In this document: one piece after another, positions 4,509-58,466 of the stretch
Position numbering within the stretch: position 1 is the stretch's first letter
How the letters are laid out: every line of letters starts with the position of its first letter
From: Gammaproteobacteria bacterium
GTDB lineage: Bacteria > Pseudomonadota > Gammaproteobacteria > JAJPIJ01
DNA: 64,000 bases
Assembly (NCBI GenBank): GCA_041395385.1
Contig: JAWLAN010000009.1
Location: 110,431-174,430 of the forward strand
Direction of reading: 5' to 3'
Notes under the pieces: generated by a model
What the model was told of the DNA's origin: nothing
The model's input: only the letters and a program-made list of their open reading frames with translations
The model's database searches: none
Program-made: the position numbers and the translations under genes

Positions 4509-4578
4509 AGGCATGTCGGCCCGGGCGATACCGCGAATCGCGCGTTCACTCGGCGGCGCGAGCGAGGCGGCCGCGGTG

Positions 4579-5778: not shown

Positions 5779-5782
5779 GCAG

Positions 5783-25683: not shown

Positions 25684-25697
25684 AGGCCCCTATCCCG

Positions 25698-39432: not shown

Positions 39433-39460
39433 TAGTCGTTTTGCGGTCCGGCGAAGGCGG

Positions 39461-39765
39461 CCAGCCGGGGCTTGCCTGGCTACCGCTCGCGGTACTTCCG
39501 TGTACCGCTCGCTACCGCGGCGTCGTGCTCGCTGTCCCTGCTGCGCGCGCCGCCGAGGCGCGCCAGGCAAGCCCCGGCTGACCGCCCGAACGTTCGGCAA
39601 ACCCTGATGGCGGCCTCGTGCCGGCTAGAGGGCGACATGCATTTGCGATCACGGCGCGTCGGTGTTCTCCGCCGTGGGCGGCACAACGCCCGGCAGACCG
39701 CCCGAACGCTCGTGAAATCTCCAAAATGGAAGTACCGCGAGCGGTAGCCAAGCAAGCCCCGGCAG
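39461..39765. repeat. REP-like mosaic of inverted and direct repeats (intergenic)
   Basis: Inverted repeats 39478-39499 vs 39728-39749 (22/22) and 39462-39480 vs 39562-39580 (19/19). Direct repeats taccgctcgc (x2) and accgcccgaacg(t/c)tcg (x2). Shares the 15-mer ccgcgagcggtagcc with 61805-61819. Confidence 0.7.
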
Positions 39766-39831
39766 AGCGCTATTGCCCACGCCCCGCTTCCGTCATGTGA
39801 AGAAAACAGTTGTCGACAGCTGGGCGGCGCG

Positions 39832-40593: not shown

Positions 40594-40712
40594 GTTTCTG
40601 CCCCCCGCCTCCACCATGCCTGACCTATGGCCCGTGTCGCGTCGCCCGCGGTCGTCGAGGACCGCTGGTCACCATCCCGAAGGATAACCCGAATCACCGG
40701 CGAGCCGCCCGC

Positions 40713-41861: not shown

Positions 41862-41862
41862 C

Positions 41863-42753
41863 TCAGCCGGCGGCCTTGAAGAGCAGGCCGCGCAGGGTGG
41901 CGCCGTCCAGCCGCTGGCGATCCTCCTGCGTCTTCATCAGGCATCCCAGCGTGTCGATGATGCGCTCGGCGTTCTCGGGCAGCGAGGGGATCTCCAGCGC
42001 CATCAGCGCCGCCGCCCAGTCGAGCGTCTCGGCCACGCCGGGGCGCTTGCGCAGGTCGAGCGCGCGCACGCCGTGCACGAACTTCACGACCTGGCGCGCG
42101 AGTTGCGCGTTGATCCCGGGCAGCCGGTTCTCGACGATGCGCAGCTCCTTCTCCACGCCCGGGTAGTCGAGGAAGTAGTACAGGCAGCGCCGTCGCAGCG
42201 CGTCGCTCAGCTCGCGGGTGCCGTTGGAGGTCAGCATCACGTGCGGGATCGAGCGTGCGCGGATGGTCCCGAGCTCCGGGATGCTCACCTGCCAGTCCGA
42301 GAGCAGCTCCAGCAGATAGGCCTCGAACTGCTCGTCGGCGCGATCGATCTCGTCGATGAGCAGCACCGGCGGCCTATCCTGCGTGATCGCCTTCAGCAGC
42401 GGGCGCGGCAGCAGAAAGCGCTCGCTGAAGATCTCCGCCTCGGTCTGCGCGAGGGGACGATCGGAGTGCTCCTGCAGCTTCATCGCCAGCAGTTGATGGG
42501 CATAGTTCCATTCATAGACGGCCTGGCCCACGTCCAGACCCTCGTAGCACTGCAGGCGGATCACCTGCGTGTCGTGCGCGGCCGCATAGGCCTGCGCCAG
42601 CGCCGTCTTGCCCACGCCGGCGTCGCCCTCGAGCAGCAGCGGGCGCTCGAGGCTTTCCATGAGCAGCAGCGTGGTGGCGAGCGGCCGGTCGGCGATGTAG
42701 CCGGCGCGGGCGAGGCGATCGCTCAGCGCAAGGATGTCCAGGTTCGTGGTCAT
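41863..42753 (-). CDS. MoxR-family AAA+ ATPase (CoxD-like)
   Basis: Walker A LLEGDAGVGKT, Walker B LLIDEIDRADE, sensor motifs; 296 aa. Confidence 0.8.
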   Translation of the reverse strand: MTTNLDILALSDRLARAGYIADRPLATTLLLMESLERPLLLEGDAGVGKTALAQAYAAAHDTQVIRLQCYEGLDVGQAVYEWNYAHQLLAMKLQEHSDRPLAQTEAEIFSERFLLPRPLLKAITQDRPPVLLIDEIDRADEQFEAYLLELLSDWQVSIPELGTIRARSIPHVMLTSNGTRELSDALRRRCLYYFLDYPGVEKELRIVENRLPGINAQLARQVVKFVHGVRALDLRKRPGVAETLDWAAALMALEIPSLPENAERIIDTLGCLMKTQEDRQRLDGATLRGLLFKAAG

Positions 42754-42754
42754 C

Positions 42755-43831
42755 TCAGCGGGCCTCGGCGCCGGCGGCGCGTTCGATGCGCGCGTGCAGC
42801 GCCTTGGTGCGATGGAAGGCGGCGATCGATTCGTGCACGAAGGTGAGCTTGCTGGTTATCTTCTCGGTGAGCACGAACGGATAGGCGTCGTGCTGGCCGA
42901 CGCTGCGGTTCATCTCGTTGAGCATGACGGTGAGCGAGGACCAGTCGGCGAGGCAGACCTGGAAGTCGTCCTCGCCGAGGGTCAGGTGCGTGAGCCCGAA
43001 GACGCCCGCGGTCTCCATGGCGTCGGCGATGTGCAGGTAATGCGCCCAGGTCTCGGCCCAGTCCTCCCAGGGGTGGGCGCGGGCGTAGGCGCTGATGTAG
43101 TCGCCGTGCCAGCGGCCCTTGTCGGCCTGTGCGTAATGCGCCTTCAGGGCGGCGGCGTAGTCGGCGCGCTCGTCGCCGAAGACGATGCGGAAGTTCTGCA
43201 GCCGGTTGGTCTCCTGCACCATCGGGCGCCAGTAGTAGTGACCGCTCTCGTGGCGGAAATGCCCGAGCAGCGTGCGGTAAGCCTCCACCATCTCGATGCG
43301 CGCGGACTCGCGCGCGGCCGGGTCGGCCTCCATCATGTTCACGGTGATGAGCCCGTTCAGGTGGCCGGTGCCGACGTATTCCTCATCGGCCCTGGGGTTG
43401 TAGCGCTTGTCGTCGCGGAAGGCGAAGGCCAGCCCCGATTCCGGATTCTGCAGCTTGCTGACGATGGGCAGCCGCAGCTCCAGCAGCGTGTACAGCATGC
43501 GGCGCTTGGCCGCCTCCATGTTCGTCCACCACAGCTGATAGCGCGGCTCCTCCAGGCTCGGCACCTCCTGGTTCAGGTTGCAGGCCAGGCAGTACTGCCC
43601 CGGGTCCTGCGCCGGCACCAGCCAGTTGCAGACGCTGTGGACGCGATAGTTGCGGCACAGGTGATAACCGCGCCGCGGGTCGCCGGCATCGCGGTAGGTG
43701 CGCCCCTCCTGCGGCTCGAGCGCGACCATGGCGCTGCGCGCCGGGTCGAAGCCCAGCTTGCGCTTGCAGCCCAGGCACTCGGTGTTCTCGAAGAACACCC
43801 GCCAGCCGCAGGTGCAGTAGTACGCCTTCAT
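42755..43831 (-). CDS. putative zinc-ribbon / HExxH zinc metallopeptidase family protein
   Basis: Start MKAYYCTCGWRVFFENTECLGCKRKLGF (zinc ribbon), then HESGHYYW (HExxH). Stop is 1 nt before the MoxR start. Confidence 0.55.
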   Translation of the reverse strand: MKAYYCTCGWRVFFENTECLGCKRKLGFDPARSAMVALEPQEGRTYRDAGDPRRGYHLCRNYRVHSVCNWLVPAQDPGQYCLACNLNQEVPSLEEPRYQLWWTNMEAAKRRMLYTLLELRLPIVSKLQNPESGLAFAFRDDKRYNPRADEEYVGTGHLNGLITVNMMEADPAARESARIEMVEAYRTLLGHFRHESGHYYWRPMVQETNRLQNFRIVFGDERADYAAALKAHYAQADKGRWHGDYISAYARAHPWEDWAETWAHYLHIADAMETAGVFGLTHLTLGEDDFQVCLADWSSLTVMLNEMNRSVGQHDAYPFVLTEKITSKLTFVHESIAAFHRTKALHARIERAAGAEAR

Positions 43832-44133
43832 TCGGGGTCGAGTCTCGCTTTTCGCCTTGGCAACCCCACGGCCGCCGAGGGGACGGCGCCGGGTCCGACG
43901 CACGATAACACAGCCGGGCGGCCCCGCCGTTTCGCCCCGGCTGGTCGATGCAGGTCGCTACAGGTTGCACCGCACCATGGGGCGCGGACCGGCCGGTTCC
44001 GGCCACGGCGACTCCGCCGGCCCGGGCCCTCGCCCATCGGCGGCGTGGCGGCGGCCCCGCGCCCCGACACGCACCGGTCACATTCCGGACCTATCGTCTG
44101 CGGCCATTCGCAACACTGCTCGCAAGGGTGGCC

Positions 44134-45336
44134 ATGCCCGTCAGACAGAAAGCCTCGTTCGCCGACCGGCTCGATCAGCGCATCTTCAACGCGATCTACG
44201 CCCGCAGCCTCGTCTACAACACCTGCTGGGAGGACCCGGCCGTGGACCGCCGGGCGCTGGCGCTCACGCCCGAGGACACCATGCTGGTCATCACCAGCGC
44301 CGGCTGCAACGTGCTCGATTACGCGCTGACGGGCGTTAAGCGGATCCACGCCGTGGACGCCAATCCGCGCCAGACGGCGCTGCTCGAGCTGAAGCTCGCC
44401 GGCATCCGGCGCCTGGATTTCGAGGACTTCTTCCAGCTCTTCGGACGCGGCCACCATCCGCGCGCCGAGGCGCTCTACCACTTCGCGCTGCGCCGCGAGC
44501 TGAGCGGCTTCGCGCGCGCGTGGTGGGATCGGCGCATCGTCTGGTTCGCGCGCCGCGACAACAGCTTCTACTACCACGGCCTCGCCGGGGTGGTGGCGCG
44601 CGGCTTCCGGCGCTTCCTCAAGCTGCGGCCGCGGCTGGCCGCCGAGGTGCACGCGCTGTTCGAGGCCGACACCGTGCAGGCGCAGCGGCGCATCTACGAC
44701 GAGCGCATCGAGCCGGAGATGTGGGGGCCGCTGATGAACTGGCTGCTGTCGCGCCAGCTCACCATGAGCCTGCTCGGCGTTCCGTACCCGCAGCGCAGGC
44801 TGGTGCAGGCCCAGCACGAGCGGGGCGTGGCGGGCTTCATCCGCGAGAGCATCGAATACGTGATGCGCGAGCTGCCGCTGCGCGAGAACTATTTCTGGCG
44901 CGTGTACATACACGGCCGGTACACGCGCGAGTGCTGCCCGGAGTACCTGAAGCCGAGGAACTTCACGGCGCTGAAGGAGGGCATGGCCGAGTGCGTCAAT
45001 CCGAACACGTGCACAGTGACGGAGTTCCTGCACCTGAACCGTGATCGACTCAGCAAGCTCGTGCTGCTGGACCACATGGACTGGATGAGCACCTATTACC
45101 CGGAGGCGCTGGCGGAGGAATGGCACGCCATCCTGGCGCGCGCAGCCCCCGGCGCGCGCGTCATCTTCCGCAGCGCGCACGTCGATCCCGGCTACCTCGA
45201 CGGCGTCAGGGTCGGCAGCCACCGGCGACCGCTGCGCGAGGTGCTGTCGCTCGAGGAGGCCGAGGCCCGCACCCTCACCGCCCGCGATCGCGTGCACACC
45301 TACGCCGGCTTTTTCATCGGCGACATCCGCCCGTGA
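44134..45336 (+). CDS. btaA: BtaA-like S-adenosylmethionine:diacylglycerol 3-amino-3-carboxypropyltransferase (DUF3419)
   Basis: MPVRQKASFADRLDQRIFNAIYARSLVYNTCWEDPAVDRRAL... matches the BtaA/DUF3419 family. About 400 aa. Confidence 0.7.
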   Translation: MPVRQKASFADRLDQRIFNAIYARSLVYNTCWEDPAVDRRALALTPEDTMLVITSAGCNVLDYALTGVKRIHAVDANPRQTALLELKLAGIRRLDFEDFFQLFGRGHHPRAEALYHFALRRELSGFARAWWDRRIVWFARRDNSFYYHGLAGVVARGFRRFLKLRPRLAAEVHALFEADTVQAQRRIYDERIEPEMWGPLMNWLLSRQLTMSLLGVPYPQRRLVQAQHERGVAGFIRESIEYVMRELPLRENYFWRVYIHGRYTRECCPEYLKPRNFTALKEGMAECVNPNTCTVTEFLHLNRDRLSKLVLLDHMDWMSTYYPEALAEEWHAILARAAPGARVIFRSAHVDPGYLDGVRVGSHRRPLREVLSLEEAEARTLTARDRVHTYAGFFIGDIRP

Positions 45337-46037
45337 ATCACTCGCCGGGCGCCGAGACGCGGACCCTGCTCGCCATGCTGCGCGGGCAGCCGCGCGCGGG
45401 CTCTCATGCCGAACGGCTGCAGGCCTTCTACGCGCCGCAGGCCGCGCACTACGACCGCTTCCGCGAACGGCTGCTGCAGGGACGCGACGGGCTCCTGCAG
45501 CGGCTGCCGCTCGCGCCCGGCGCCACGCTGATCGACCTGGGCGGCGGCACCGGCCGCAACATCGAGTTCCTGGCCGCGCGCGTGCCGGCGCTGGCCCGTG
45601 TCGAACTGGTCGACCTCTGCCCGGCGCTGCTGGCGCAGGCGCGGCAGCGCTGCGGGCGCTGGCCCAACGTGCACCTCGTCGAGGCCGACGTCACGCACTA
45701 CCGGCCGGCGCAGGCGGCCGACGTGGTGCTCATGTCGTACGCGCTGACGATGGTCCCGGATTGGCGCCCGGCACTGCACAATGCGGTTGCGATGTTGCGG
45801 CCGGGCGGCACGCTGGGGGTCGTCGACTTCTGCCTCAGCGAGTCGCAGCCGCGCTGGCTCGGCGCCTTCTGGCGGCGCTGGTTCGCGCACGACGGCGTGC
45901 GCGTCTCGCGCGAGCACGCCGCGGTCCTGCGCGCCCTGTTGCCCGCGCACGAGTACGCCGAGCATCGCGCGCCGGTGCCGTACCTGCCGCTGCTGCAGGT
46001 GCCTTACTACCACTTTCTCGGCGCGAAGCCTCGCTGA
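45333..46037 (+). CDS. btaB: BtaB-like SAM-dependent N-methyltransferase
   Basis: Class I SAM-MTase motif (LIDLGGGTGRN). GTG start overlaps the btaA stop (GTGA); alternative ATG at 45375. Confidence 0.65.
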   Translation: MNHSPGAETRTLLAMLRGQPRAGSHAERLQAFYAPQAAHYDRFRERLLQGRDGLLQRLPLAPGATLIDLGGGTGRNIEFLAARVPALARVELVDLCPALLAQARQRCGRWPNVHLVEADVTHYRPAQAADVVLMSYALTMVPDWRPALHNAVAMLRPGGTLGVVDFCLSESQPRWLGAFWRRWFAHDGVRVSREHAAVLRALLPAHEYAEHRAPVPYLPLLQVPYYHFLGAKPR

Positions 46038-46168
46038 CCGGCGGCGGGTATCGGCCACCGCCACGGTGGTCGACCGTGCGCGCGCCGGCGGCGGCGGGAC
46101 GCCAGAGGCCGCGGCCGGCCGCAGTGCGGATCGGGTATCCTAGCGGTCCAGCTCGCGACCGATTGCGC

Positions 46169-47575
46169 ATGCCCATACCGGAATCCGCCACTCCGCAGGA
46201 GCGCGCTACGCTGATCATGGTTTGGCTCAGCGCCTTCAGCACGCCGCTCATGCTCTCGGCGGTCAACGTCGCTCTGCCCTCCATCGCCCGCGCCGTGCAC
46301 CTGAACGCCGTCGTCCTGAGCTGGGTGCCCCTCGTCTACCTGCTCGCGAGCGCGATGTTCGTGCTGGTGTTCGGCAAGCTCGCCGACCTGCACGGCCGCA
46401 AGCGCGTCTTTCTCATCGGCAGCGCCGGGGTGATGGTGAGCTCGGTACTCGCCGCGCTCGCCGCCGACGGCGCGCAGCTGCTCGCGTTCCGGTTTCTCCA
46501 GGGCGTGTTCACCGCCGCGCTCTACGCCACGCAGATCGCCATCGTCTCGGCCGCCTTCCCGCCGTCCCGGCGCGGGCACGCGATCGGGCTGACGATCTCC
46601 AGCGTCTATGTCGGCCTGACCGCCGGTCCGGCCATCGGCGGCTATCTGCTGGAGGTCTTCGACTGGCGCGCCTGTCTGCTGGTGCAGGTGCCGTTTTCGA
46701 TCGCGATCCTGTGGCTCGGCCTCGCGCGCGTGGGCGCCGAGTCGGGCGGCGAGGGACACGGCAGCTTCGATTTCGCCGGCGCCGCCCTCTACATGCTCAC
46801 CCTCGCGGCCGTGATCGGCGGCAGCTCGCTCCTGCCGGCTACCGTTGGGTGGGCGCTGAGCGCGGTCGGCATCGTCGCGCTGGTACTGTTCGTCGTCGTC
46901 GAGCGGCGGCACGTGCATCCGATCTTCGATCTGAAGCTCTTCTTCACCAACCGCGTGTTCGGCATGTCGTGCCTGGCCGCGTTCCTCATGTACACGGCCA
47001 CCTTCGCCAACGTCGTGCTGGTCGGTCTGTATCTGCAGTACCTGCACGCGCTGCCACCGGGCAAGGCCGGGCTGGTGATGATGGCGCAGCCGCTGACGAT
47101 GGCGCTGTTCGCGCCGGTCGCGGGCCGCCTCTCGGATCGCTTCGAGCCGCGCTGGCTCGCTTCCGCCGGCATGGTGGTGACGTCGGCCGGGCTGCTGGCG
47201 CTGGGGGCGCTGCGGCCCGACAGCAGCATCCCGCACGTGGCCGGCGCCCTGGTCGCCACCGGCATCGGCTTCGGCCTGTTCTCGGCGCCGAACACGCACG
47301 CCATCATGAGCGCGGTGGACAAGCGCTACTACGGCACCGCCAACAGCAAGGTGGCGACGATGCGGCTGCTCGGCCAGATGTGCAGCATGGGCATCATCGC
47401 CGTGGTGTTCGCGCTCTTGCTCGGGCCGGTGACTATCGCGCCGGAGATCTACGATCGGCTGCAGGCGGCGCTGAGCGCGTGCTATTTCACCGCGGCGGCG
47501 CTCTGCATCCCGGCAATCTTCCTGTCGCTGGGGCGGGGCACCGTGCATGCCGGCGAGTCCCGCCATTCCGCGTGA
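46169..47575 (+). CDS. MFS transporter (DHA2/EmrB-like, 14 TM)
   Basis: MPIPESATPQERATLIMVWLSAF..., an MFS signature (GKLADLHGRKRVFLIG) and about 468 aa. Confidence 0.75.
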   Translation: MPIPESATPQERATLIMVWLSAFSTPLMLSAVNVALPSIARAVHLNAVVLSWVPLVYLLASAMFVLVFGKLADLHGRKRVFLIGSAGVMVSSVLAALAADGAQLLAFRFLQGVFTAALYATQIAIVSAAFPPSRRGHAIGLTISSVYVGLTAGPAIGGYLLEVFDWRACLLVQVPFSIAILWLGLARVGAESGGEGHGSFDFAGAALYMLTLAAVIGGSSLLPATVGWALSAVGIVALVLFVVVERRHVHPIFDLKLFFTNRVFGMSCLAAFLMYTATFANVVLVGLYLQYLHALPPGKAGLVMMAQPLTMALFAPVAGRLSDRFEPRWLASAGMVVTSAGLLALGALRPDSSIPHVAGALVATGIGFGLFSAPNTHAIMSAVDKRYYGTANSKVATMRLLGQMCSMGIIAVVFALLLGPVTIAPEIYDRLQAALSACYFTAAALCIPAIFLSLGRGTVHAGESRHSA

Positions 47576-47597
47576 CTCGCTGCGGTAGACTGGGCCG

Positions 47598-48845
47598 ATG
47601 GAATTCACCGCCTCGCATTACCTGTCCCTCGCGGTCGCCCTGGGCATAGGGCTGCTCATCGGCGCCGAGCGCGAGCGGCGCAAAGGCAAAGGGCCCTCGC
47701 GCGGCCCGGCGGGCATACGCACGTTCGCGATCACCGCTCTGCTCGGCGCACTCAGCCTGCAGCTCGGCGGCGAGATCATGCTCGCGGTCGCGACCGCCGG
47801 CGTCATGGTGCTGACGGCGCTCGCCTACTTCCGCAGCAGCGCGGAGGACCCGGGTCTGACGACGGAGATCGCCCTCGTGATCACGGTGCTGCTGGGCGGC
47901 TGGGCCGTGCGGGAGCCGGTGGTCGCGGCAGGCGCGGGCGTGGTCGTTGCCATCCTGCTGTCGGCGCGTGAGGAGATCCACCGCTTCGTGCGCGACGTCC
48001 TCACCGAGGGCGAGATGCGCGATGCGCTCATACTGCTGGCGGCGACGCTCGTCATCCTTCCGCTGGTGCCCGATCGCTATCTGGGACCGTACGATGCGCT
48101 CAACCCGCGCACCATCTGGGTCATCATGATCCTGATCATGACCATCAGCGCTGCCGGGCACGTCGCGGTGCGCGCCTTCGGCCCGCGCTATGGTCTGCCG
48201 ATGGCGGGGTTCTTCGGAGGCTTCGTGTCCAGCGCCGCGACCATCGGTGCGATGGGCGGGCGCGCATTGAAGCAGCCCGAAACGATGCGGCCGGCCGTTG
48301 CGGGCGCGGTGCTGTCGACCGTCGCGACGGTGCTGCAGATGGCCGCCGTGCTGGCGGCCACCAACCCGGCCAGCTTGCGGTTGATGACGACGGCGCTCGT
48401 CCTCGCCGGTATCGCGGCGCTGGGTTATGGCGCGTTGTTCACGATCCGCGCGATGTCGCCGGTGACGAAGCAGGACGCCCCTCCCGGGCGCGCGTTCAAT
48501 CTCGGGACGGCCGCGGTCTTCGCGCTGATGTTTTCGGTGGTGCTCATTGCGGCGGCGGCGCTGAGGGAACACATGGGGCAGACCGGCGTCGTCGTCGCGG
48601 CAGCCGCTGCCGGCTTCGTCGACACCCACTCGGCGGCCGCATCGATCGCCTCCCTGGTGGCCGCCGGCAAACTGGCGGCGGCCGATGCCGTGCTGCCGAT
48701 CCTCGCGGCATTCACGACCAATACCCTCACCAAGATGGGTTTCGCGCTAGTCAGCGGCGGCATGCGCTTCGCCATGCAGATTGTCCCCGGTCTCATCCTC
48801 GTCAATGCGGCCGCGTGGCTGGGCAGCGGTTTGGTCGAGTTCTGA
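47598..48845 (+). CDS. MgtC/SapB family + DUF4010 membrane protein
   Basis: 415 aa polytopic membrane protein with the N-terminal MgtC-like region (LAVALGIGLLIGAERERRK). Confidence 0.65.
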   Translation: MEFTASHYLSLAVALGIGLLIGAERERRKGKGPSRGPAGIRTFAITALLGALSLQLGGEIMLAVATAGVMVLTALAYFRSSAEDPGLTTEIALVITVLLGGWAVREPVVAAGAGVVVAILLSAREEIHRFVRDVLTEGEMRDALILLAATLVILPLVPDRYLGPYDALNPRTIWVIMILIMTISAAGHVAVRAFGPRYGLPMAGFFGGFVSSAATIGAMGGRALKQPETMRPAVAGAVLSTVATVLQMAAVLAATNPASLRLMTTALVLAGIAALGYGALFTIRAMSPVTKQDAPPGRAFNLGTAAVFALMFSVVLIAAAALREHMGQTGVVVAAAAAGFVDTHSAAASIASLVAAGKLAAADAVLPILAAFTTNTLTKMGFALVSGGMRFAMQIVPGLILVNAAAWLGSGLVEF

Positions 48846-49097
48846 TCCGCCGCCGCTCGGCCGTCGCTACGCGATCGCGAGATAGAGCGCGATGCCGAGC
48901 GCGCTGGAGGCTCAGTGCGAGTGCGGCTGCATCGCCGCCGTGCCGGTGGAGGAGGACAGCAGCGCCAGGACCGACCCGAATCGCGCCACGACGAAACCGG
49001 GCGCCATGACCGTGAGCCCGGAGCGCACCCAGGCGGGCAGCGTGCGCTCGGCGGCAAAGAAGACGCGCGGGTAAGTGGTCGTCATCACTTCAGGCCG

Positions 49098-49574
49098 TCA
49101 CGCGGGTGCCGGCCGCGCCTCGCGGCCCGGCGCATCGTCCGCGGCCAGCGCCTTGTACATGAATGTCGAGGACGCGGGGCACAGGCCGGAGAACTGCGCC
49201 GTTCCCGCGATGGCCGCCGGAGCGGAGGCACGAGTCGCGACCTCGTAGCCCAGCCGGGCAAAGAAGCCGGCGGCCGTGGTGGTCAGCAGGTACGCGCCGC
49301 GGACACCATGTTGCGCGGCCCAGCGCTCGACATGATCGACCAGCCGTCTGCCGAGTCCGATCCCGCGTGCGCCGTCGGCGACGGCCAGCGATCGGAGCAA
49401 CGCCACCGACCCATACCGCTCTATTCCGATCACGCCTGCCAGCGAGCCGTCACAACGGGCTGCGAAGAAAACCGCCGTCGAGCCGCCGCGCAGATCTGAG
49501 ACGGGCAGGCCGCTGTCCGCGAGCACGGCCTCGACCTCGGTGGAACAGGGGATCGGCCCGATGTCGTTGCTCAT
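49098..49574 (-). CDS. GNAT family N-acetyltransferase (ArsN2/ArgA-like)
   Basis: Start at MSNDIG within track ORF 49098..49724. Acetyl-CoA binding motif (RGIGLGRRLVDHVERWAAQHG). Confidence 0.65.
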   Translation of the reverse strand: MSNDIGPIPCSTEVEAVLADSGLPVSDLRGGSTAVFFAARCDGSLAGVIGIERYGSVALLRSLAVADGARGIGLGRRLVDHVERWAAQHGVRGAYLLTTTAAGFFARLGYEVATRASAPAAIAGTAQFSGLCPASSTFMYKALAADDAPGREARPAPA

Positions 49575-49587
49575 GTTCCACGGACGA

Positions 49588-50031
49588 TCACGCCAGGCCG
49601 CCGAAGCGGACGCCGACGCCGACCACCAGGAAGGCCACCGCGATGATCGTGACCGCGACGATGTGCATGGCGAGCACGGGCAGCGTGCGGGCATCGAGGC
49701 GCGGGATGACGCGCAGCCGCGCATTGAGGGCGAGCAGCACGGTCGCGGCCAGCAGGCCGAGCTTGGTCAGTATCAGCCAGCCCTGCGCGACGTTCGGCGC
49801 GAACCACGCGGATACGTCTGGCACCCAGTGGTGCGCGAGCCACAGGCCGGTCAGGACCTGGATGAGGAGCGCCGGCATGCCGACGCGCTCGTAGGCACCC
49901 TCGAAGTTCAACACCAGCGAGGGATCGCGCGTCCGCAGCGCGCGCGGCAGGATGGACAGTGCCAGCACGAGGTGCCCGCCGACCCATACCGCGGCGCCGA
50001 GCAGATGCAGAACGATAATGGTTCGGTACAT
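49588..50031 (-). CDS. CopD-family-like small membrane protein (4 TM)
   Basis: 147 aa hydrophobic ORF, MYRTIIVLHLLGAAVWVGGHLVLALSILP.... Confidence 0.5.
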   Translation of the reverse strand: MYRTIIVLHLLGAAVWVGGHLVLALSILPRALRTRDPSLVLNFEGAYERVGMPALLIQVLTGLWLAHHWVPDVSAWFAPNVAQGWLILTKLGLLAATVLLALNARLRVIPRLDARTLPVLAMHIVAVTIIAVAFLVVGVGVRFGGLA

Positions 50032-50146
50032 CGTCAGACCCGCTCCCGCCCGTTGCGATGGCGAGAGTCTGCCACGAACGCTGCCTGCCGTCTCCCCGTC
50101 GCGGGCGATCCTGCCGCCGCGCGCCTTTCACATACCTGCAGGGGCG

Positions 50147-50950
50147 TTAGCCGGCCGTCGCCGTGATCATCAGTACCGGCATGAGAAACTCGACCGAGCC
50201 GCCGGCAACGAGGAACGGCTGGAATTCGCGTTCGGCCTCCTGCGTCAGGCGCGCGAACTGCTCGTCATCGAGTATGCCGCCCAGGGTCCACACGCAGGCA
50301 CGCTCGGTGGAGATCATGGAGGCGATCGAGGCGAAACGGACCGTGCCGTCGTGCCGCGTCACCATCGCCCCGGCGATGCCCGCCTGCTCGCACAGCGCCA
50401 GCAGGCGTTGGGTGTTGCCGAGCACGAAGGGCGCGTGGAAGGCGTCGGCGACGCGCTGGCCGAACAGCCGCAGCAGCAGCGCCGAGAGCGCCGCATAGCC
50501 GGGCGAGCGCTCCACGGCATCGCACACGGCCACGGCCACCCGGCCGCGCGGCCGCAGCACGCGCATCATCTCGCGCAGCGCCGCGACGCGGTCCTCGAAG
50601 AACATGAGTCCGAACTGGCTCACCACCGCGTCGAAGCTTTCCTCCGGGAAGGGCAGCGACTCGGCACGGCCCTCGCGCCACTCGACGCGATCGCTCTTGG
50701 GCCGCGCCACCGCGAGCATCTCGGCATTCGCATCCAGGCCCACCACGGACCCGCGCGGACCGGCGCGCTCCGCCGCGGCGCAGGCCAGCACGCCGGTGCC
50801 GCAGGCGACGTCGAGCACGCGCTGGCCGGGCTCGATGCGTGCCGCCTCGGCGACCCGGTCGCCCCACTGGTGGAACAGCGCCGGGACGAAGAGCTCTTCG
50901 TAGACCTCGGCCGGGGAGCGCGAGGACAGCCTGGGTTGGCTCTCTTTCAT
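50147..50950 (-). CDS. class I SAM-dependent methyltransferase (UbiE/COQ5-like)
   Basis: Motif I VLDVACGTGVLA and post-I acidic residue. Confidence 0.7.
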   Translation of the reverse strand: MKESQPRLSSRSPAEVYEELFVPALFHQWGDRVAEAARIEPGQRVLDVACGTGVLACAAAERAGPRGSVVGLDANAEMLAVARPKSDRVEWREGRAESLPFPEESFDAVVSQFGLMFFEDRVAALREMMRVLRPRGRVAVAVCDAVERSPGYAALSALLLRLFGQRVADAFHAPFVLGNTQRLLALCEQAGIAGAMVTRHDGTVRFASIASMISTERACVWTLGGILDDEQFARLTQEAEREFQPFLVAGGSVEFLMPVLMITATAG

Positions 50951-51112
50951 GCGATCCCTCCTTTCGGGCGTCCACCGCGGGACGGCCGCGCGCGCAGGGG
51001 CGCGGCGTGCCGCGGGCTGTGCGCCTGTGGAGGTTAAAGCACAGATCCGCCGTCGCGGCCAGGTGGCGGGCGAGTGGCGAGCGCGCCGCCGCGGACTCCC
51101 GTGCGCCGAGGC

Positions 51113-51733
51113 CTACGCCACGGACTTGCGCAGATGGCAGTACACGAACCGCTGCACGGCGCCCGTGGGCGTGACGTGCTCTTCCCTTTCGCAACGATGC
51201 AGCGAGAAGGCCTCGCCGAACTCGGCGTGCAGCTCCTCGGGGCTGTAGCGCACGACCGGCAGACCGCTGCACTTCGTCGGGCCATCCTCGGCAAAGGTGG
51301 CGATGATCACGTGTCCGCCCGGCCTCACGGCGTGCAGGATCGCGCTGATGTAGGTCATGCGATCCTCGGACACCGTGAGGAAGTGAAACACCGCCCGGTC
51401 GTGCCACACGTCGATGCAACGGCGGGGGAGGTTGATCGCCGTGATGTCGGCCTCGATCCAGCGGACCTCCAGCGCGCGCTCGCCGAGCCTGGCCTTGGCG
51501 GCCGCGATCGCCGCGCCGGAGATGTCGAGCACGGTGACATCCGTGTACCCCTCCGCCAGCAGATCCTCGGCGAGCGTGGAGGCCCCGCCGCCCACGTCGA
51601 TGATCGATGCGTTCCTGCCTACGCCGGTGGCGCGGATCAGGCTCAGCGAACGATCCGCGTGCGCCTGGTACCAGCTCACCGCGTTCGCGGCCCGGCTGGC
51701 GTAGACCTGCTCCCAATGCTCTTTCGGTCGCAT
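51113..51733 (-). CDS. class I SAM-dependent methyltransferase
   Basis: Start MRPKEHWEQVY. Motif I IIDVGGGASTLAEDL. Confidence 0.7.
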   Translation of the reverse strand: MRPKEHWEQVYASRAANAVSWYQAHADRSLSLIRATGVGRNASIIDVGGGASTLAEDLLAEGYTDVTVLDISGAAIAAAKARLGERALEVRWIEADITAINLPRRCIDVWHDRAVFHFLTVSEDRMTYISAILHAVRPGGHVIIATFAEDGPTKCSGLPVVRYSPEELHAEFGEAFSLHRCEREEHVTPTGAVQRFVYCHLRKSVA

Positions 51734-51754
51734 GATGGCGCCTCGCACGGGCCA

Positions 51755-52216
51755 TCATACGCCGGCGATCCCACGGGCGTGAACGGCGCGCGCGGCCAGC
51801 AGCGCCACGGTCATCGCCAGCACCCAGATGGTGAAGGCCGCGAGCGGGTGATTGCCCACCGCGACCAGGCTCATGAGGAACGGCAGGAGGAACAACTCGC
51901 CCGCGTGGCGCGCGTCGCCCGTGCCGTGCAGGTAGGCGGTCGAGGCCGCCGCCACAATCAACGGCAGGACGAGACCGGCGAGGAAGAGCGCCAGCCGATC
52001 GGTGAAGCCGATGAACAGGACCCAGCAGTTGACGAGCATGGTCACCGGCACGATGACCACCGAGGCGGCCACCAGGGCGAGCGGCGCCCATTCCCTCCCG
52101 CGTCCCGTGACGACCACCAGGTAGACGATGAACGCCGCCAGCAGCACGATCGGCAGCGCATTGCCCAGCCAGAATTTCCTCGCGACCGTGGCGCGTGCGT
52201 CCATGCCGCCCATCAT
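51755..52216 (-). CDS. hypothetical membrane protein (4 TM)
   Basis: Hydrophobic ORF MMGGMDARATVARKFWLGNALPIVLLAAFIV... inside longer track ORF 51755..52435. Start uncertain. Confidence 0.4.
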   Translation of the reverse strand: MMGGMDARATVARKFWLGNALPIVLLAAFIVYLVVVTGRGREWAPLALVAASVVIVPVTMLVNCWVLFIGFTDRLALFLAGLVLPLIVAAASTAYLHGTGDARHAGELFLLPFLMSLVAVGNHPLAAFTIWVLAMTVALLAARAVHARGIAGV

Positions 52217-52307
52217 CCGGCGGCGGCCCCGTGCGAGGCAAGCGGGGCCGGGCCCGCGCCGTGCAGGCGTTCCTCCTGGTAAGTCTGTGCGGTCGGGTGA
52301 TTGCCCC

Positions 52308-52961
52308 TCAGTCGCGATCCGGCGCGCCGAGCGGGAAGTAATGGCGATACGGCCGCGCCTCGTCCACGGCGCGCGCGAAGGACGGCCGCGCCAGCAGCCG
52401 CTGCCGGTAGGCGCGGACGTTCGCGTGCGCCTCACCGATGGGGTGCACCCAGTCGGCGTAGAAGAGCGACGGCGCGGCGGCGCAGTCCGCGAGGCTGAAA
52501 TCGCCGCCCGCCGCCCACGCGCGCCCGTTCATGGTCTTCTCCAGCCAGCCGTAGGCGGTGTCGAGCATCGTGTGCGCGTCGGCCACGCCCGCCGGATCGC
52601 GGCTGTCCTCGGGGCGCAGCCTGTCGAAGACGATCTTCTGCATCGGCGTCATCACGTAGTTGTCGAAGAAGCGGTCCATGAACCGCACCTCGAGCGCCGC
52701 GCGCGGGTCCCCGGGGACGAGGCGCACGGGGCCGGGGTGATGCAGCCCCAGGTACTCGATGATGATGGTCGCCTCCGGCAGGGTGCGGTCGCCGTCCACC
52801 AGCACCGGCATCTTCTTGATGGGCCACAGCGCCGCGTGCTCGGCCGCGATCTGCGCATCGCCCACCGCGAGCAGGCGGTATTCGAACGGCGTGCCGTTCT
52901 CGTAGAACGCGATCAGCACCTTCTGGCAGTAGGAGGAAAAGGGGTGGGCGTAGAGCTTCAT
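52308..52961 (-). CDS. glutathione S-transferase
   Basis: MKLYAHPFSSYCQKVLIAFYENG (thioredoxin-like N-domain) and a C-terminal GST domain; 217 aa. Confidence 0.8.
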   Translation of the reverse strand: MKLYAHPFSSYCQKVLIAFYENGTPFEYRLLAVGDAQIAAEHAALWPIKKMPVLVDGDRTLPEATIIIEYLGLHHPGPVRLVPGDPRAALEVRFMDRFFDNYVMTPMQKIVFDRLRPEDSRDPAGVADAHTMLDTAYGWLEKTMNGRAWAAGGDFSLADCAAAPSLFYADWVHPIGEAHANVRAYRQRLLARPSFARAVDEARPYRHYFPLGAPDRD

Positions 52962-53018
52962 CGGTGTCTCCCGTGGTGGGGTGCTTGGTGTGTTCTTGTC
53001 AGGCGCGCCGCAGCGGTC

Positions 53019-53058
53019 TGCGGCCGTCCTCGATCTCTACGACGAACGAGGACGGCCG
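53019..53058. promoter_or_regulatory. perfect 13-bp inverted repeat (stem-loop) between GST gene start and DinB gene end
   Basis: gcggccgtcctcg-N14-cgaggacggccgc, with no adjacent U-tract. Confidence 0.35.
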
Positions 53059-53150
53059 CGATCGACATCGACGGGCCGCGCGGCGGGCGCCATGCGGCCG
53101 GCGCGGGCGCAGCCGCCCGTGTTTTCAGGCGGTTGCGCCCGCGAGCCGCT

Positions 53151-53663
53151 TCAGGTTTCGTTGCGCGCCCGCACCTGCGGCAGCCAGATGAGGTCCGTGA
53201 CCCCGTAGTCCTTGCCGCACTGGCTCAGCAGGGCCGTGACCTGACCGCGGTGGTGCGTCTGGTGGTTGAAGAACTGCGCCACGGCCACCCACATCTCGTA
53301 CGTGCGCGGCGCGGGATTGACGATGGTGGTGAACCGAAGCTGCCCGGCGAGCGCCTCGTCGGTGAGCGAGGTCGCCCAGCCGACGATGTCCCCGTCGGTG
53401 CGCTCGCGCTCGCGGCGCAGCTCATCGAAGTCGGCGTACAGCTCCTCATCGAGGCCCCTGGGCCTGAACTGAGTGCCCTGGAAGCGCGACAGCCACACCC
53501 GGTCGCCCACCAGCAGGTGATTGAGCGTGCCGTGGATGGACTTGAAGAACACGCCGCGGTCCTGGCGGCGCTCCGCGTCGCTGAGCTCGGCGCACACGGC
53601 GTACAGCCGCTGGTTCATCCACTGGTTGTAGGTTGCCAGGTCCCGCGCCAGGTTGGCGTGCAT
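53151..53663 (-). CDS. DinB/YfiT-family damage-inducible protein
   Basis: Start MHANLARDLATYNQWMNQRL; His triad of the DinB_2 fold. gaggga SD. Start 3 nt after the yciI-like stop. Confidence 0.75.
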   Translation of the reverse strand: MHANLARDLATYNQWMNQRLYAVCAELSDAERRQDRGVFFKSIHGTLNHLLVGDRVWLSRFQGTQFRPRGLDEELYADFDELRRERERTDGDIVGWATSLTDEALAGQLRFTTIVNPAPRTYEMWVAVAQFFNHQTHHRGQVTALLSQCGKDYGVTDLIWLPQVRARNET

Positions 53664-53665
53664 GA

Positions 53666-54055
53666 CTAGTCCCTCGGCGTCTCGTTGGTCACGTTGTAGG
53701 CGCTGGCGCGCTCCAGCTCGACGGGCCGCACCTCGTAATAAAGGCCGCAGGCGAGGCACGGATTCTCCGCCGCGATGCGCGCCGCCTCATCGAGGCTGTC
53801 GGCGAGGATGAACCAGTAGCCGCCGATCACCTCCTTGGACTCGCTGTAGGGGCCGTCGGTTACCACCTCGCGCCGGACGATCCTGCCCTCGGTCGCGAGC
53901 CGCTGCCCGGGCTTCATCCTACCCTCGGCCACGAGCCGATCCTTCCAGACGTAGAACGCGTCGATCGCGGCCTGGATCTCCTCCGGCGAGCGGTCCCTGT
54001 CCCACTGCCCGCGGGAGACGACGAGGTATTCCGACATGGCGGCATTCCTGTTCAT
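53666..54055 (-). CDS. YciI family protein
   Basis: 129 aa with the YciI/DGPF pattern (MSEYLVVSRGQWDRDRSPEEIQAAIDAFYVWKDRL...GGYWFILADSLDEA). Probable true start MSEYLVV at 54037. Confidence 0.7.
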   Translation of the reverse strand: MNRNAAMSEYLVVSRGQWDRDRSPEEIQAAIDAFYVWKDRLVAEGRMKPGQRLATEGRIVRREVVTDGPYSESKEVIGGYWFILADSLDEAARIAAENPCLACGLYYEVRPVELERASAYNVTNETPRD

Positions 54056-54165
54056 GGCGTGCTCCTGGCGCGTCGAGCAGACGCGCCCGTCATGTGCCCC
54101 TCATTTGTCTGTCGCGCTCCGGCGCGCGGCGCGGCCGGTGCAAGGGATCCGTAGCGTTCGCGGGA

Positions 54166-54858
54166 CTATTCTCCCGCGCGTATGAAGCGCAGCGGGTGCG
54201 GCTGGCCCGCCGCGTAGATGTAGAGAAAGGAATCCCTGATCTCGACGCGTTCGGCTTCCTGCAGCGCGCCCAGGTAGTCGCGCTCCTGGCGCATGACCTC
54301 CTCGCCGCAGGACATGCGCGTCGTCGCCAGCGGGCCGAAGGCGATGCGATGCCCCGCGACCGTCGCCCCGCCGCGGAACTGGTTGCAGGAGCCGTTGCCG
54401 ACGACCTGCCCCTGCTCGAGAAACTCCAGGGTGGCCTGCACGTCGTCGATCACGGCGCCACCGGCGAGCTCCTCCAGGCGCCAGGACGTCGACCACAATG
54501 CGGGGACGCCGGCCGCCTCGCCGCTCCGCTGCCTCACTCGCAGTAGTTCGATCATCGGCCCGACCATGCCGATCGACATCATGTCGTCGCGGCGACGCGC
54601 ATCGGCCTCGACCGCCATGCCCTCCTGCCGGAAGGCCTCGGGCAGGTTGGTGGGGTGGTATTGCGTGCCCTCCGCGTCGCGGATCACGAACAGGCCGCCC
54701 TCCACGTCGAGATGATGGACCGTCCCGGCGATACGCTCGACCGATCCGGGTTCCGGAGACGGTGTCTCGAGCTCCACCCAGCGCTCGCCGCCCATGCCGG
54801 CGCATGACGTGACGATGCTCATTGCGGCTGAAACCAGAACGATCCTCCAGGTCACCAT
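54166..54858 (-). CDS. META (HslJ-like) domain-containing lipoprotein
   Basis: Signal/lipobox (IVTSC) and a C-terminal META domain (WRLEELAGG...NQFRGGATVAGHRIAFGPLATTRMSC). Confidence 0.6.
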   Translation of the reverse strand: MVTWRIVLVSAAMSIVTSCAGMGGERWVELETPSPEPGSVERIAGTVHHLDVEGGLFVIRDAEGTQYHPTNLPEAFRQEGMAVEADARRRDDMMSIGMVGPMIELLRVRQRSGEAAGVPALWSTSWRLEELAGGAVIDDVQATLEFLEQGQVVGNGSCNQFRGGATVAGHRIAFGPLATTRMSCGEEVMRQERDYLGALQEAERVEIRDSFLYIYAAGQPHPLRFIRAGE

Positions 54859-54873
54859 CCGCCCCTCCGAAGG

Positions 54874-55332
54874 TCAGGCCTCTCCGCGCCCGTGCCGGGC
54901 GGCGAGTATGGCAAGCGTAGCGGGATCGGGCTTGCCCGCAAAGTACTTGTTCAACGCCTCGGCGAACACCTTTTCCGAGTCGGCGACCTCGGCGAAGAGG
55001 GTGCAGCAGGACCGGAACTTGGCCGCGTCGACCGAGCCGAAGATCTCCACGGCGCCGAGGCCATCGTGCGCGTTCACCGCCGCCACGCACTCGCGCAGGC
55101 GGGCGCCGAGGACCGGATGCCCGAGATACGCGCGCGCCTCGGCGGGCGAGCCGATGGCGTAGCGCCTGGACATCGCGCTGGTGCCCAGCCCCTCGATCTG
55201 CGGCAGGACGTACCAGATCCAGTGCGTGCGCTTCCGGCCCGCGCGCAGCTCGGCGAGGGCTTGCGGGTAGCTCGTCTCCTGAGCCGTTACGAAGCGATCA
55301 AGGTCGTAGGGATCCGATCGTGTCGTCGGCAT
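54874..55332 (-). CDS. DUF1810 family protein
   Basis: 152 aa with the DUF1810 pattern (PYDLDRFVTAQETSYPQALAELRAGRKRTHWIWYVLPQ). Confidence 0.65.
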   Translation of the reverse strand: MPTTRSDPYDLDRFVTAQETSYPQALAELRAGRKRTHWIWYVLPQIEGLGTSAMSRRYAIGSPAEARAYLGHPVLGARLRECVAAVNAHDGLGAVEIFGSVDAAKFRSCCTLFAEVADSEKVFAEALNKYFAGKPDPATLAILAARHGRGEA

Positions 55333-55460
55333 GTAACCGTTACGGCGGTTCGTGACGGAGAGTGAGATCCGATATCAGCAGGCGGCTCCTGCCGGAGACC
55401 TAACGACTGAGGTGTGCGGCGCGAGCCGCGTAGCGGCGAGGCGTCCGCACGGGCGATGTG

Positions 55461-55700
55461 TTACGCGACGTTCTGAAGCCTGTTGGCATAGTCGCGGCCC
55501 GATGTGGCGGGAGGCAATGGTTTCCCATCGGCCCGGTAAAGCTCAATCGCCTCTTCGACAATCTGGCACAGCTCGTCAAAGACCGCCTTCTCGTCTTGCC
55601 CATGACACCCGGCATAGATCAGCCCCGGGGCGCTCCCGACATAACATTGGTCCTCCTCGGACCACTCGACGATCTTTACGTACCTCGCACTGTCTTTCAT
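55461..55700 (-). CDS. hicB: HicB-family antitoxin (UPF0150/HicB N-terminal domain)
   Basis: 79 aa, MKDSARYVKIVEWSEEDQCYVGSAPGLIYAGCHGQDEKAVFDELCQIVEEAIELY, matching the HicB N-domain fold. ATG overlaps the upstream hicA remnant stop (ATGA). Confidence 0.6.
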   Translation of the reverse strand: MKDSARYVKIVEWSEEDQCYVGSAPGLIYAGCHGQDEKAVFDELCQIVEEAIELYRADGKPLPPATSGRDYANRLQNVA

Positions 55701-55892
55701 TTCTTCGATTCCTCAATCGCCAGATGCACGGCTCGGACTTGGTAATGCCGGGCATCCTCGCCCAGACTTCCTGAAATTGTAACCGGTTCCGCGACCTTCG
55801 GATGCACGAAGTTCCTGTGACTCCCTTTTCCTCCCCGGTCCACTTAGCCGGCGCGCTTCAGTTCAGCGATCAAACTCTGATCTTGCGCGCAT
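55697..55892 (-). pseudogene. hicA: hicA toxin gene remnant (frameshift + in-frame stop)
   Basis: Three-frame reconstruction: MRARSEFD (frame 1) / IAELKRAG* (frame 3, TAA where HicA has Trp) / VDRGGKGSHRNFVHPKVAEPVTISGSLGEDARHYQVRAVHLAIEESKK, which carries the HicA KGSHxxFxHP signature. Confidence 0.5.
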
Positions 55893-56104
55893 TTGTGCTC
55901 CCTGTCATTCAAATCGAATAACGTTGAGCATGACCGGCGCCCAAATAGCGGACGAAGGCCGCTGTTTAGGCGTCCGTGTCGATGCGCGTGTTAGAGCGCA
56001 CAAGCCTGTAAATTGACCGTAAATAGGTAGTGGCGACGGCGTTTGGGCCCGGGCCCTCACCGGCGCTGGTGCCTCCACGAAAAAGAATGCAGCAGCTTCT
56101 GATG

Positions 56105-57112
56105 TCAGATGCCCGAGGGCGGCATGGTGACGACGATCTTGCCCTTCGCGCGCCCCTGTTCCACATATGCCATCGCATCGAGCGTCTCGTCGAATGGGAA
56201 CGTGCGGTCGAGCACCGGACGCAGGGTGCCCGCATCATAGAGAGCGGCTAACGTCTTCAGTTGCGCGCCATCGGCCCGCATGAAGAAGAACGAGTAGCGC
56301 ACGCCTAGCTTCCTTGCCCGCGCCCGCACCTTGCGGCTCATCAGTGCCAACACAGGCCTCAGTAGTGGCCGGCCGACCTGCTCGGCGAACGCAGCGTCCG
56401 GTGGGCCGACGACGCTGATCGCCAGGCCACCAGGTTTGAGCACGGTCAGCGACTTCGCGAGGTTGTCGCCACCAAGGGAGTCGAGCACGACGTCGTAGCC
56501 GGAGAGCAACTCGGCGAAGTCTGCCTTGGTGTAGTCGATGACTTCGTTCGCGCCGAGGCCGCGCACCTTCTCCTCGTCGTTGCCGTGCGCAGTGGTGGCG
56601 ACGTATGCGCCCAGGTGCTTGGCGAGCTGGACGACTGTCGAGCCCAGTCCGCCCGCGCCAGCGTGAACGAGGACCTTCTGCCCCGGCTTGACCCGCGCGA
56701 GGTTGACCAGCGCCTGCCACGCGGCAAGCGCGACCAGCGGGACCGCCGCAGATTCTTCCATCGTGAGTGAGTTCGGCTTGAGGGCGATGTCCGCATAGTC
56801 GATGGCGATGTACTCCGCGAAGGCCCCGATACGCAGGTCGCGGGGTCGGGCGTAGATCTCGTCGCCGACTTTGTAGTCCCGCACCTCGGCGCCGACCCGC
56901 GTCACTACGCCCGCGACGTCGTGTCCGAGCACGAACGGCGTTTTGTACTTCAGGAGCAGCTTGAACTCGCCGTTGCGGACCATCTTGTCCAGCGGGTTGA
57001 TGCTGGCAGCACCCACCCGGACCAGAACGTCACGCGGCCCGATGGTGGGATCTGGCACTTGGGCAGCGCGGAGGCCGCTCTTGCCATAATTCTCGACGAC
57101 GAATGCCTTCAT
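56105..57112 (-). CDS. NADPH:quinone oxidoreductase / zinc-binding MDR family protein (Qor-like)
   Basis: 335 aa; GHDVAGVV and the NAD(P)-binding motif HAGAGGLGSTVVQLAK. Confidence 0.8.
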   Translation of the reverse strand: MKAFVVENYGKSGLRAAQVPDPTIGPRDVLVRVGAASINPLDKMVRNGEFKLLLKYKTPFVLGHDVAGVVTRVGAEVRDYKVGDEIYARPRDLRIGAFAEYIAIDYADIALKPNSLTMEESAAVPLVALAAWQALVNLARVKPGQKVLVHAGAGGLGSTVVQLAKHLGAYVATTAHGNDEEKVRGLGANEVIDYTKADFAELLSGYDVVLDSLGGDNLAKSLTVLKPGGLAISVVGPPDAAFAEQVGRPLLRPVLALMSRKVRARARKLGVRYSFFFMRADGAQLKTLAALYDAGTLRPVLDRTFPFDETLDAMAYVEQGRAKGKIVVTMPPSGI

Positions 57113-57201
57113 AACAGACCGCCTGTTGTGCGACGATTTCTGGGCTCTTGGTGGTGGTCGATGGTACGCTGCCGTTATCCCGTCATATGCGCTCTAACGT
57201 C

Positions 57202-57861
57202 CTAGCTAACCGGCGTGCCCAGCTGTTCGGGCACGTCCGGTTGAGCGCCTTGTTGGGCATTGAAGTTCATCGTTATGCGCGGCATTTTCACAGTGCTAAA
57301 GCATATCCGCGCATCGGCCTCTCGCCCCCACCACTCATCGATAGTGAATTGCATGGAGCCGCACGACAGCCAGTAGTGCCCATTGTTGATTCGTTGGCCG
57401 GCGTTGGCCTCTGAGAACACCACGGCCGCAAGCAGCGCAAAATTGATGGTGTCTGGAATGATCATTTCCTGCTGGCCGATGGTTATGGATCGGTGCTCGT
57501 TGCTCTGCCTCAGAACAACACCGAATCCTTTCGGAATATCGGTGCCATGAACGAGGTTGCACCGAAAGATTTCGTATACAACTTCCGAAAATAAAGATGG
57601 CCGATTCTTCAGCGCGATCCACGTGAACTTTGTTTCTTCCAAATTGATGCCAATTGCCAGCATGGGTTCGATAACCCACAGATAGCGATTGAAGGTATCA
57701 ACGAACCGGTCACGCACTCCTTTTTGTGGAAAGAGTAGCGCGCCAGTGCCGTCGAGTGCGGCGCACGCATGCATCAAGGCGGAGCCTAGCTTCCCATTTC
57801 CTGCATCATCGAGCGCGTAGGCGACTCGCTGCGCCATGTTCATCATAATGATGCCCAACAT
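57202..57861 (-). CDS. hypothetical protein in low-GC island (no recognisable family)
   Basis: ORF of 219-254 aa in the only roughly 50% GC segment of the window (about 57.2-58.0 kb). Start uncertain (Met at 57861/57846/57837; AT-rich promoter-like sequence at 57930-57990). Confidence 0.45.
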   Translation of the reverse strand: MLGIIMMNMAQRVAYALDDAGNGKLGSALMHACAALDGTGALLFPQKGVRDRFVDTFNRYLWVIEPMLAIGINLEETKFTWIALKNRPSLFSEVVYEIFRCNLVHGTDIPKGFGVVLRQSNEHRSITIGQQEMIIPDTINFALLAAVVFSEANAGQRINNGHYWLSCGSMQFTIDEWWGREADARICFSTVKMPRITMNFNAQQGAQPDVPEQLGTPVS

Positions 57862-58466
57862 TGAATTAGACAGTCGGCAGGAATAAATGAGATGGACAGA
57901 GTCCGTATAGTTCTTGTCATGGCGCGGTCTCGAAATCGTATATAACCGCCTATTTGTACAAGGCAACAGCCACGCAGATGCTTTTCAATTCCGACGGGAA
58001 ATGCAGCCGGTCCCGGCGTGAAGAGTCGAGCGACAGGAAGCTCAGGGCACACGACCACCGATCCTGCCGTCTTGGGCTTGCGCAATTGCACTGCGCAATG
58101 TCCGCTACAGGGGAATACGAACTGTCTCCTTCTGGCCGATTGGTCCGGCCCCTGCACACGGCCGTGCTGCGGTGTTGCGCCATGAGGCGGCGGGTGCCCG
58201 AGAGGGAAGCACTGAGAATGGAGGGCACAACCATCCGCATGACTCCTTGTCGGGGCGGCGCACGCGGCGCCGCGGTTGCTGCTAAAGCATAGCAGCCGGA
58301 TTTGGATTGGGGGAAGCGAATAGGGGGAATGGAAGTCGGGGTTGGCTTGGCGGCGCGGTGGAATCCCCTTGGCCCGCTCATTTAAAAGGTGGGAGCAACG
58401 CGATCTTCAAGGGGGAACCGGATGGGAGGCGGCGGAAGACGCGCGGCGAACTGGTAGAATGCCGCC

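Follow-up and report, generated by a model that had tools for sequence, protein, structure and literature searches.

A 64,000-nt stretch of the genome of an uncultured gammaproteobacterium (GenBank assembly GCA_041395385.1, contig JAWLAN010000009.1, forward-strand positions 110,431 to 174,430; hereafter the window, with positions counted from its first letter) carries a small, GC-poor gene on the minus strand upstream of aroC, whose product is a member of Pfam family PF27329 (Rv1289) by the precomputed tags on its homologues. We conclude that the gene was acquired horizontally and that it stands alone, without a partner gene. The best overall explanation is that it is a single-gene cargo at a hypervariable spot upstream of aroC and encodes a stand-alone ribonuclease (RNase) of the HEPN type, a reading to which we give a probability of about 0.5.

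A preliminary description of the window, made from its letters, had pointed to a drop in GC content at about 57.2–58.0 kb against a 68% background, and a sliding-window profile identifies this as the deepest dip of the whole 64 kb. GC is 0.49–0.54 across 57250–58150 compared with approximately 0.68 on either side (300-bp windows), and the dip is the window-wide minimum at scales of 300, 642 and 1000 bp. Specifically, of the 64 one-kb bins none is lower than that of 57–58 kb (0.538), the runner-up being 0.619, and the coding sequence (CDS) of the gene has a GC z-score of −5.3 SD relative to 94 non-overlapping 642-bp windows. The GC content at third codon positions (GC3) is 0.64 in this gene and 0.83–0.94 in neighbouring host genes. 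Because GC3 is depressed, and not only the GC content at first and second positions, the amino-acid makeup of the protein is unlikely to account for the low GC.

The locus also points to horizontal acquisition (Table 1). The gene order downstream of aroC is kept in four related genomes (L038, L040, L042 and L043), the order upstream is not, and our gene is absent from the corresponding locus in all four. In L042 and L043 the prmB-like methyltransferase abuts aroC, which shows that the ∼19 kb preceding aroC in the window is variable DNA; parts of this region are shared with L040 in rearranged form, where the cargo upstream of aroC (2854–7804) comprises a PIN/PhdYeFM pair, Endo_dU and Peptidase_Mx. 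The closest relative, L038, has an aroC 94% identical to that of the window, for which the best named match is Thioalbus (77%). By blastn it aligns colinearly with the window as far as 55411 and then from 58154 onwards, and the right-hand breakpoint coincides with the recovery of GC. Between the breakpoints (5566–6837) L038 encodes a DUF1428 protein, an MNT-type nucleotidyltransferase (Polbeta/NTP_transf_2) and an unannotated open reading frame (ORF) of 107 amino acids (aa), which might be a toxin partner of the MNT gene. A second small indel lies nearby: a META-domain gene at 54166–54858 (minus strand) of the window is missing from the otherwise colinear L038.

A vertically inherited housekeeping gene, with low GC due to amino-acid composition or expression level, would be expected to be intact, as this gene is, and we find nothing else that speaks for it. 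The synteny comparison refutes it, the family is sparse (see below) with a patchy phyletic spread, and the depressed GC3 points the same way, so that we consider this explanation negligible.

Within the window-specific cassette, the gene is separated from the remnant of a hicAB module by a host-like zinc-type alcohol dehydrogenase (ADH) gene, with a GC3 of 0.83, which lies on the same strand 89 bp downstream of our gene. The remnant, recognized by eye, consists of a HicA-like frame at ∼55697–55915 with an in-frame stop at 55844–55846 (six-frame readings '...LIAELKRAG*VDRGGKGSHRNFVHPKVAEPVTISG...' and also '...LIAELKRAG*VDRGGKGSHRNFVHP...'), and of an intact HicB-like ORF of 79 aa (55461–55700), which begins within the end of that frame and has no significant Pfam match. 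The preliminary description had placed our gene beside a hicAB remnant: the remnant is real, the adjacency is not, as the 1-kb ADH gene intervenes. It had also proposed an island before aroC. Variable, acquired DNA is indeed present there; among the Pfam hits in the ∼19-kb region, however, we find assorted accessory genes and no integrase or transposase, so that the region is better described as a flexible hotspot than as a classic island.

Comparison with the gene's relatives in other genomes suggests that it may travel as a bare coding sequence. Nucleotide similarity to its four closest relatives is 70–84% and stops at the edges of the CDS (57234–57864); even with the 84%-identical relative there is no conservation of the DNA on either side. 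At 30 of 34 loci (L001–L037) the family gene has a lower GC content than its flanks, often by 0.1–0.2, in hosts that span 29–69% GC. Taken with the low GC3, the swapped cassette in the closest relative and the empty site in L042 and L043, recent horizontal acquisition, as proposed in the preliminary description, is well supported. We also note that genes of the window's subgroup hold approximately 53–55% GC irrespective of host.

Relatives of the gene often lie next to mobile elements. In locus L029 (7104–16582) the family gene directly follows an integrase; a PriCT_2/DUF927 primase and a pentapeptide-repeat protein are encoded in the same element, which looks like a phage satellite or a small integrative element. 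In Enterobacter the gene has icd on one side and, on the other, the int/xis end of a Rac-like prophage, and in Kosakonia there is an integrase remnant at the equivalent place. The 149 neighbouring ORFs at 30 other loci include three integrases, three transposase-type proteins, four HTH_3 proteins, HipA and SmpB. An integron cassette was considered given that similarity ends at the CDS edges, and seems unlikely: the icd/int junction and the integrase–primase contexts are not integron-like. Beyond the enterobacterial synteny no neighbour recurs at the 33 loci compared, either among ORFs of at least 80 aa or among those of 25–130 aa, and the gene is thus stand-alone. The ADH gene, for example, adjoins the family gene at no other locus and is therefore a neighbour in the cassette and not a conserved partner.

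The preliminary description had found no detectable similarity of the protein to known families. This holds for direct scans of the local Pfam, NCBIfam and PHROGs collections, which gave no matches to the window protein, for the PADLOC-DB 2.0 defence models, and for sequences in the Protein Data Bank (PDB), where single-sequence and profile searches gave only chance-level matches (among them a 'D-x-WWG' similarity to ribosomal protein L9 of eukaryotes, E ∼0.5, which we ascribe to chance). It does not hold for the homologues. A search of 5.8 billion proteins yields 39 homologous clusters at 29–90% identity (E from 2e-127 to 2e-14, covering ∼89% of the length), most of them with proteins of ∼193 aa, and all 39 carry the precomputed Pfam tag PF27329 "Rv1289". 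The gene is for this reason not an orphan: a known but uncharacterized family gains a new member. An exhaustive profile search of 1.84 billion representative proteins finds 819 clusters at E ≤ 0.001, nearly all of them single-domain proteins of ∼200 aa. Homologues occur in hosts as scattered as Kosakonia, Enterobacter, Methanoregula, Verrucomicrobia, Patescibacteria, Bacteroidia, Rhodococcus and Mycobacteroides, the last two from a genome scan. Rare fusions join the Rv1289 domain to extra segments, either ∼160 aa at the N-terminus or ∼250 aa at the C-terminus (P0153, 402 aa, and P0180, 444 aa), which might hint at partners or triggers.

The family takes its name from Mycobacterium tuberculosis Rv1289, which has been listed as a candidate for horizontal transfer with lower GC (PMC3087520) and is only an 'unknown protein' in the literature at hand, in which we found nothing on PF27329 or on the function of Rv1289. 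The likeness of the two proteins rests on the family tag of the homologues, and both genes are low-GC candidates for horizontal acquisition, whereas the window protein sits in a proteobacterial subgroup with ∼53% GC.

The gene itself is functional. The minus-strand ORF 57202..57966 of the preliminary description, for which a start at 57861 had also been given, is present in the ORF list, and alignment with relatives shortens it: the favoured start is the ATG at 57843, the ATGs at 57846 and 57861 are possible alternatives, and the TTG at 57966 is very unlikely. The gene has a full-length reading frame that aligns colinearly with the family and retains all key conserved residues. In comparison with L035 the proportions of nonsynonymous (pN) and synonymous (pS) differences are 0.091 and 0.743, which implies purifying selection and thus a functional gene, not a remnant.

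Upstream, the 310-bp non-coding region is specific to the window and is not kept in any relative of the gene. It includes the stretch 57930–57990 that the preliminary description had called promoter-like. The AT-richness is evident (41% GC), but a sigma-70 consensus scan of 56900–58600 returned no sites, so that the gene's own promoter, which presumably lies within this region, is only inferred. No clear ribosome-binding site was detected for the gene either, no tRNA genes or Rfam families were found around it, and a check for flanking direct repeats, suggested in the preliminary description, gave none that were convincing. The lack of a recognizable promoter and ribosome-binding site, together with the hicA pseudogene in the same cassette, is what could be expected if the ORF were a remnant in decay or had arisen spuriously in AT-rich junk DNA. 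However, the intact colinear frame, the retained residues, the low pN/pS and a confident structural model (below) come close to refuting this alternative, and we give it only a very small chance.

The functional assignment rests on the predicted structure together with a conserved motif. An AlphaFold2 model based on the 39-sequence alignment (predicted local distance difference test score, pLDDT, 86.4; predicted template modelling score, pTM, 0.85) contains four helices that we read as an N-terminal core, where the helix numbering is our own assignment from the model. The third helix ends in an R-x4-H motif that is part of the family signature F-R-C-N-L-A-H-G. In 186 family members R94 is conserved at 99% and H99 at 98%, so that both rank with the best-conserved positions of the protein; position 95 is Cys in 90%, with Asn as the commonest substitute (5%). 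The acidic residue D31, inside the second helix, is Asp in 86% and Glu in 11% of the same members and does not have the usual Ex3[KR] form. In HEPN domains an Rx4-6H motif closes helix 3 or opens the loop that leads to helix 4, helices 2 and 3 are often separated by an insert, helix 2 carries an acidic residue, and in Csx1 a beta-hairpin directly follows the motif (PMC3710099). The model agrees with this description in the position of the motif, in the helical hairpin that separates helices 2 and 3, in the acidic D31 and in the beta-hairpin after the motif, and because of this agreement we propose a stand-alone HEPN-type RNase. In a Foldseek comparison with viral models (BFVD) two matches to the model were plausible, A0A0H4TI24 (170 aa, probability 1.00, E 1e-3) and A0A3G2KI42 (probability 0.84), the latter a protein of Arthrobacter phage Nandita.

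A number of results weigh against this reading. The residue after R94 is Cys and not the Asn, Asp or His that is typical, though not obligatory, in HEPN proteins. A Pfam scan of the 39 family members gave only scattered chance matches at E ≤ 10, with no HEPN family among them, the profile search of PDB sequences returned no HEPN protein, and Foldseek of the model against the PDB returned nothing usable. Since Foldseek, hidden Markov models and hhalign all fail to produce a HEPN match, confidence in the fold is only moderate, with odds that lean slightly in its favour. The defence side of the reading has its own difficulties: no PADLOC-DB 2.0 family matches the window protein at E ≤ 1, PHROGs has no match either, and tblastn and blastn searches of 50,697 phage records, 72,556 plasmids and 5,426 E. 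coli genomes gave no match to the family. Some neighbours of family genes match PADLOC models (DarG, UzuA and MADS components), but many PADLOC models are generic, and the enrichment of defence genes near family genes, assessed without a control, is only suggestive. The empty sigma-70 scan belongs on the same side.

Known HEPN proteins offer partial precedents. HepS of the Salmonella prophage Gifsy-1 is a 'HEPN Solo' abortive-infection protein (PMC13043305) and a precedent for solo HEPN defence; the window gene is likewise without a conserved partner or conserved flanks. The LT2 Gifsy-1 record contains no ORF with R100–H105, so that the HepS sequence was not recovered from it. Mycobacteriophage Butters gp57r (sequence from KC576783) has ∼190 aa and an R-x4-H at residues 94–99 (RDRCAH), the same positions as in the window protein, and is a one-gene system whose expression from the prophage is not toxic. 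However, hhalign of the family profile against gp57r gives a probability of 0.2% with the motifs unaligned, a further point against the proposed assignment, and no tblastn match to family members came from the phage collection, so that a common family with gp57r is unsupported. The HEPN domains of Csm6/Csx1 differ: the window protein has no CARF or other ligand-sensing domain and no CRISPR context, and the identity is 7%. AbiV and the HEPN-MNT toxins (SO_3166, 7ae2, AF0298, TT1696) also differ, since the Rv1289 family has an extra C-terminal beta/alpha module of ∼60 residues and the window gene has no MNT partner: the downstream gene is the ADH, and there is no Pfam-recognizable ORF between the gene and aroC. 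In addition, the PADLOC models that the window protein fails to match include AbiV.

HEPN toxins commonly belong to toxin–antitoxin pairs, and the gene could therefore be the toxin of a toxin–antitoxin or addiction module with an unrecognized antitoxin, stabilizing the variable region and not acting against phage. Candidates for the antitoxin would be a small protein, an RNA (antisense or structured) from the 310-bp low-GC stretch upstream, or a factor supplied by the host. The hotspot does carry modules of this type, with hicAB in the window, the MNT gene in L038 and the PIN/PhdYeFM pair in L040, and the low-GC non-coding region arrived together with the gene. On the other hand, no neighbouring ORF of at least 25 aa is conserved across the 33 loci, the flanking DNA lacks both conservation and an Rfam family, as described above, and an MNT-type nucleotidyltransferase is not among the 25 commonest Pfam families of the neighbouring ORFs. 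We regard such a module as an improbable alternative.

If the single-gene HEPN reading is correct, the product would be a metal-independent endoribonuclease with its four-helix core at the N-terminus. A helical hairpin would separate helices 2 and 3, and helix 3 would close with the catalytic residues R94 and H99, ahead of the beta-hairpin. The conserved C-terminal beta/alpha module could hold the enzyme in check or serve as the sensor of a trigger. If it behaves like HepS of Gifsy-1 and Butters gp57r, the protein would be an abortive-infection or toxin effector. It might be produced constitutively as an inactive oligomer and be switched on by an invading phage or other element, whereupon its cleavage of tRNA or mRNA would abort the infection. 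The RNase activity, the trigger and the defence role are speculative, and the defence role is weaker still than the HEPN assignment. The guess in the preliminary description of an abortive-infection or defence-type gene fits the HEPN-like fold and the motif but is still a conjecture.

More broadly, and as a tentative suggestion that we think will rather fail than hold, PF27329 as a whole, Rv1289 included, could be an unrecognized immunity class of stand-alone HEPN-type RNases that spread as bare single genes, lacking flanking DNA, a partner or an antitoxin, across bacteria, archaea and Patescibacteria and carry a conserved C-terminal sensor of the trigger. If the HEPN prediction is true, a function-unknown Pfam family of ∼800 clusters, including an M. 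tuberculosis gene, gains a biochemical function open to test, the cleavage of RNA by way of R94 and H99; single-gene abortive infection would then be the likely role, which would enlarge the small set of solo HEPN proteins (HepS, gp57r). If it fails, what is left is a well-documented small foreign gene of unknown function. The prmB–aroC interval is in addition an integrase-free chromosomal hotspot that swaps toxin- and defence-type cassettes among close relatives.

Table 1. Coordinates of the Rv1289-family gene, its predicted structural elements and the surrounding locus (nucleotide positions in the window; residue numbers in the 213-aa protein).
Feature	Position	Strand	Remarks
CDS of Rv1289-family (PF27329) protein	57202..57843	-	213 aa, begins MNMAQRV; start from family alignment
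R94-C-N-L-V-H99 codons, R-x4-H motif, proposed HEPN-type RNase active site	57547..57564	-	family conservation
Helix 1	residues 3-15		model
Helix 2	residues 19-37		model; contains D31
Insert, helical hairpin between helices 2 and 3	residues 43-62		model
Helix 3	residues 85-99		model; ends R94..H99, then loop
Beta-hairpin	residues 107-130		model
Helix 4	residues 132-143		model
C-terminal beta/alpha module	residues ∼145-195		model; with N147, W172-G173
Non-coding region upstream of gene	57844..58153	-	GC 0.535; includes AT-rich 57930-57990
Window-specific cassette relative to L038	55412..58153	.	hicA pseudogene, HicB-like ORF, Zn-ADH/quinone oxidoreductase, Rv1289-family gene
Zinc-type alcohol dehydrogenase/quinone oxidoreductase	56105..57112	-	Pfam ADH_zinc_N_2, ADH_N, ADH_zinc_N
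hicAB remnant	55461..55915	-	second low-GC patch, GC 0.56-0.58
Variable DNA between prmB-like methyltransferase and aroC	39400..58460	.	∼19 kb; gene at aroC-proximal end
prmB-like methyltransferase	38601-39398		
aroC	58467-59570		

Two minor features of the DNA around the gene can be added. A terminator-like hairpin with a T-rich tail lies at 58273–58298 (plus strand), within the conserved spacer that immediately precedes aroC. The stem of this hairpin resembles 57294–57310 within the CDS at 15 of 17 nt (the 17-nt pair 57294/58280), probably by chance.

Elsewhere in the window another lower-GC patch is found at 24946–26531 (minus strand), where an FHA-domain gene adjoins a gene for a PP2C-like Ser/Thr phosphatase, both recognized by eye; GC is at most 0.58 over ∼25.3–26.3 kb of this patch. 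Minor GC dips are also seen at 12.2–12.6, 18.5–18.9 and 37.8–38.3 kb.
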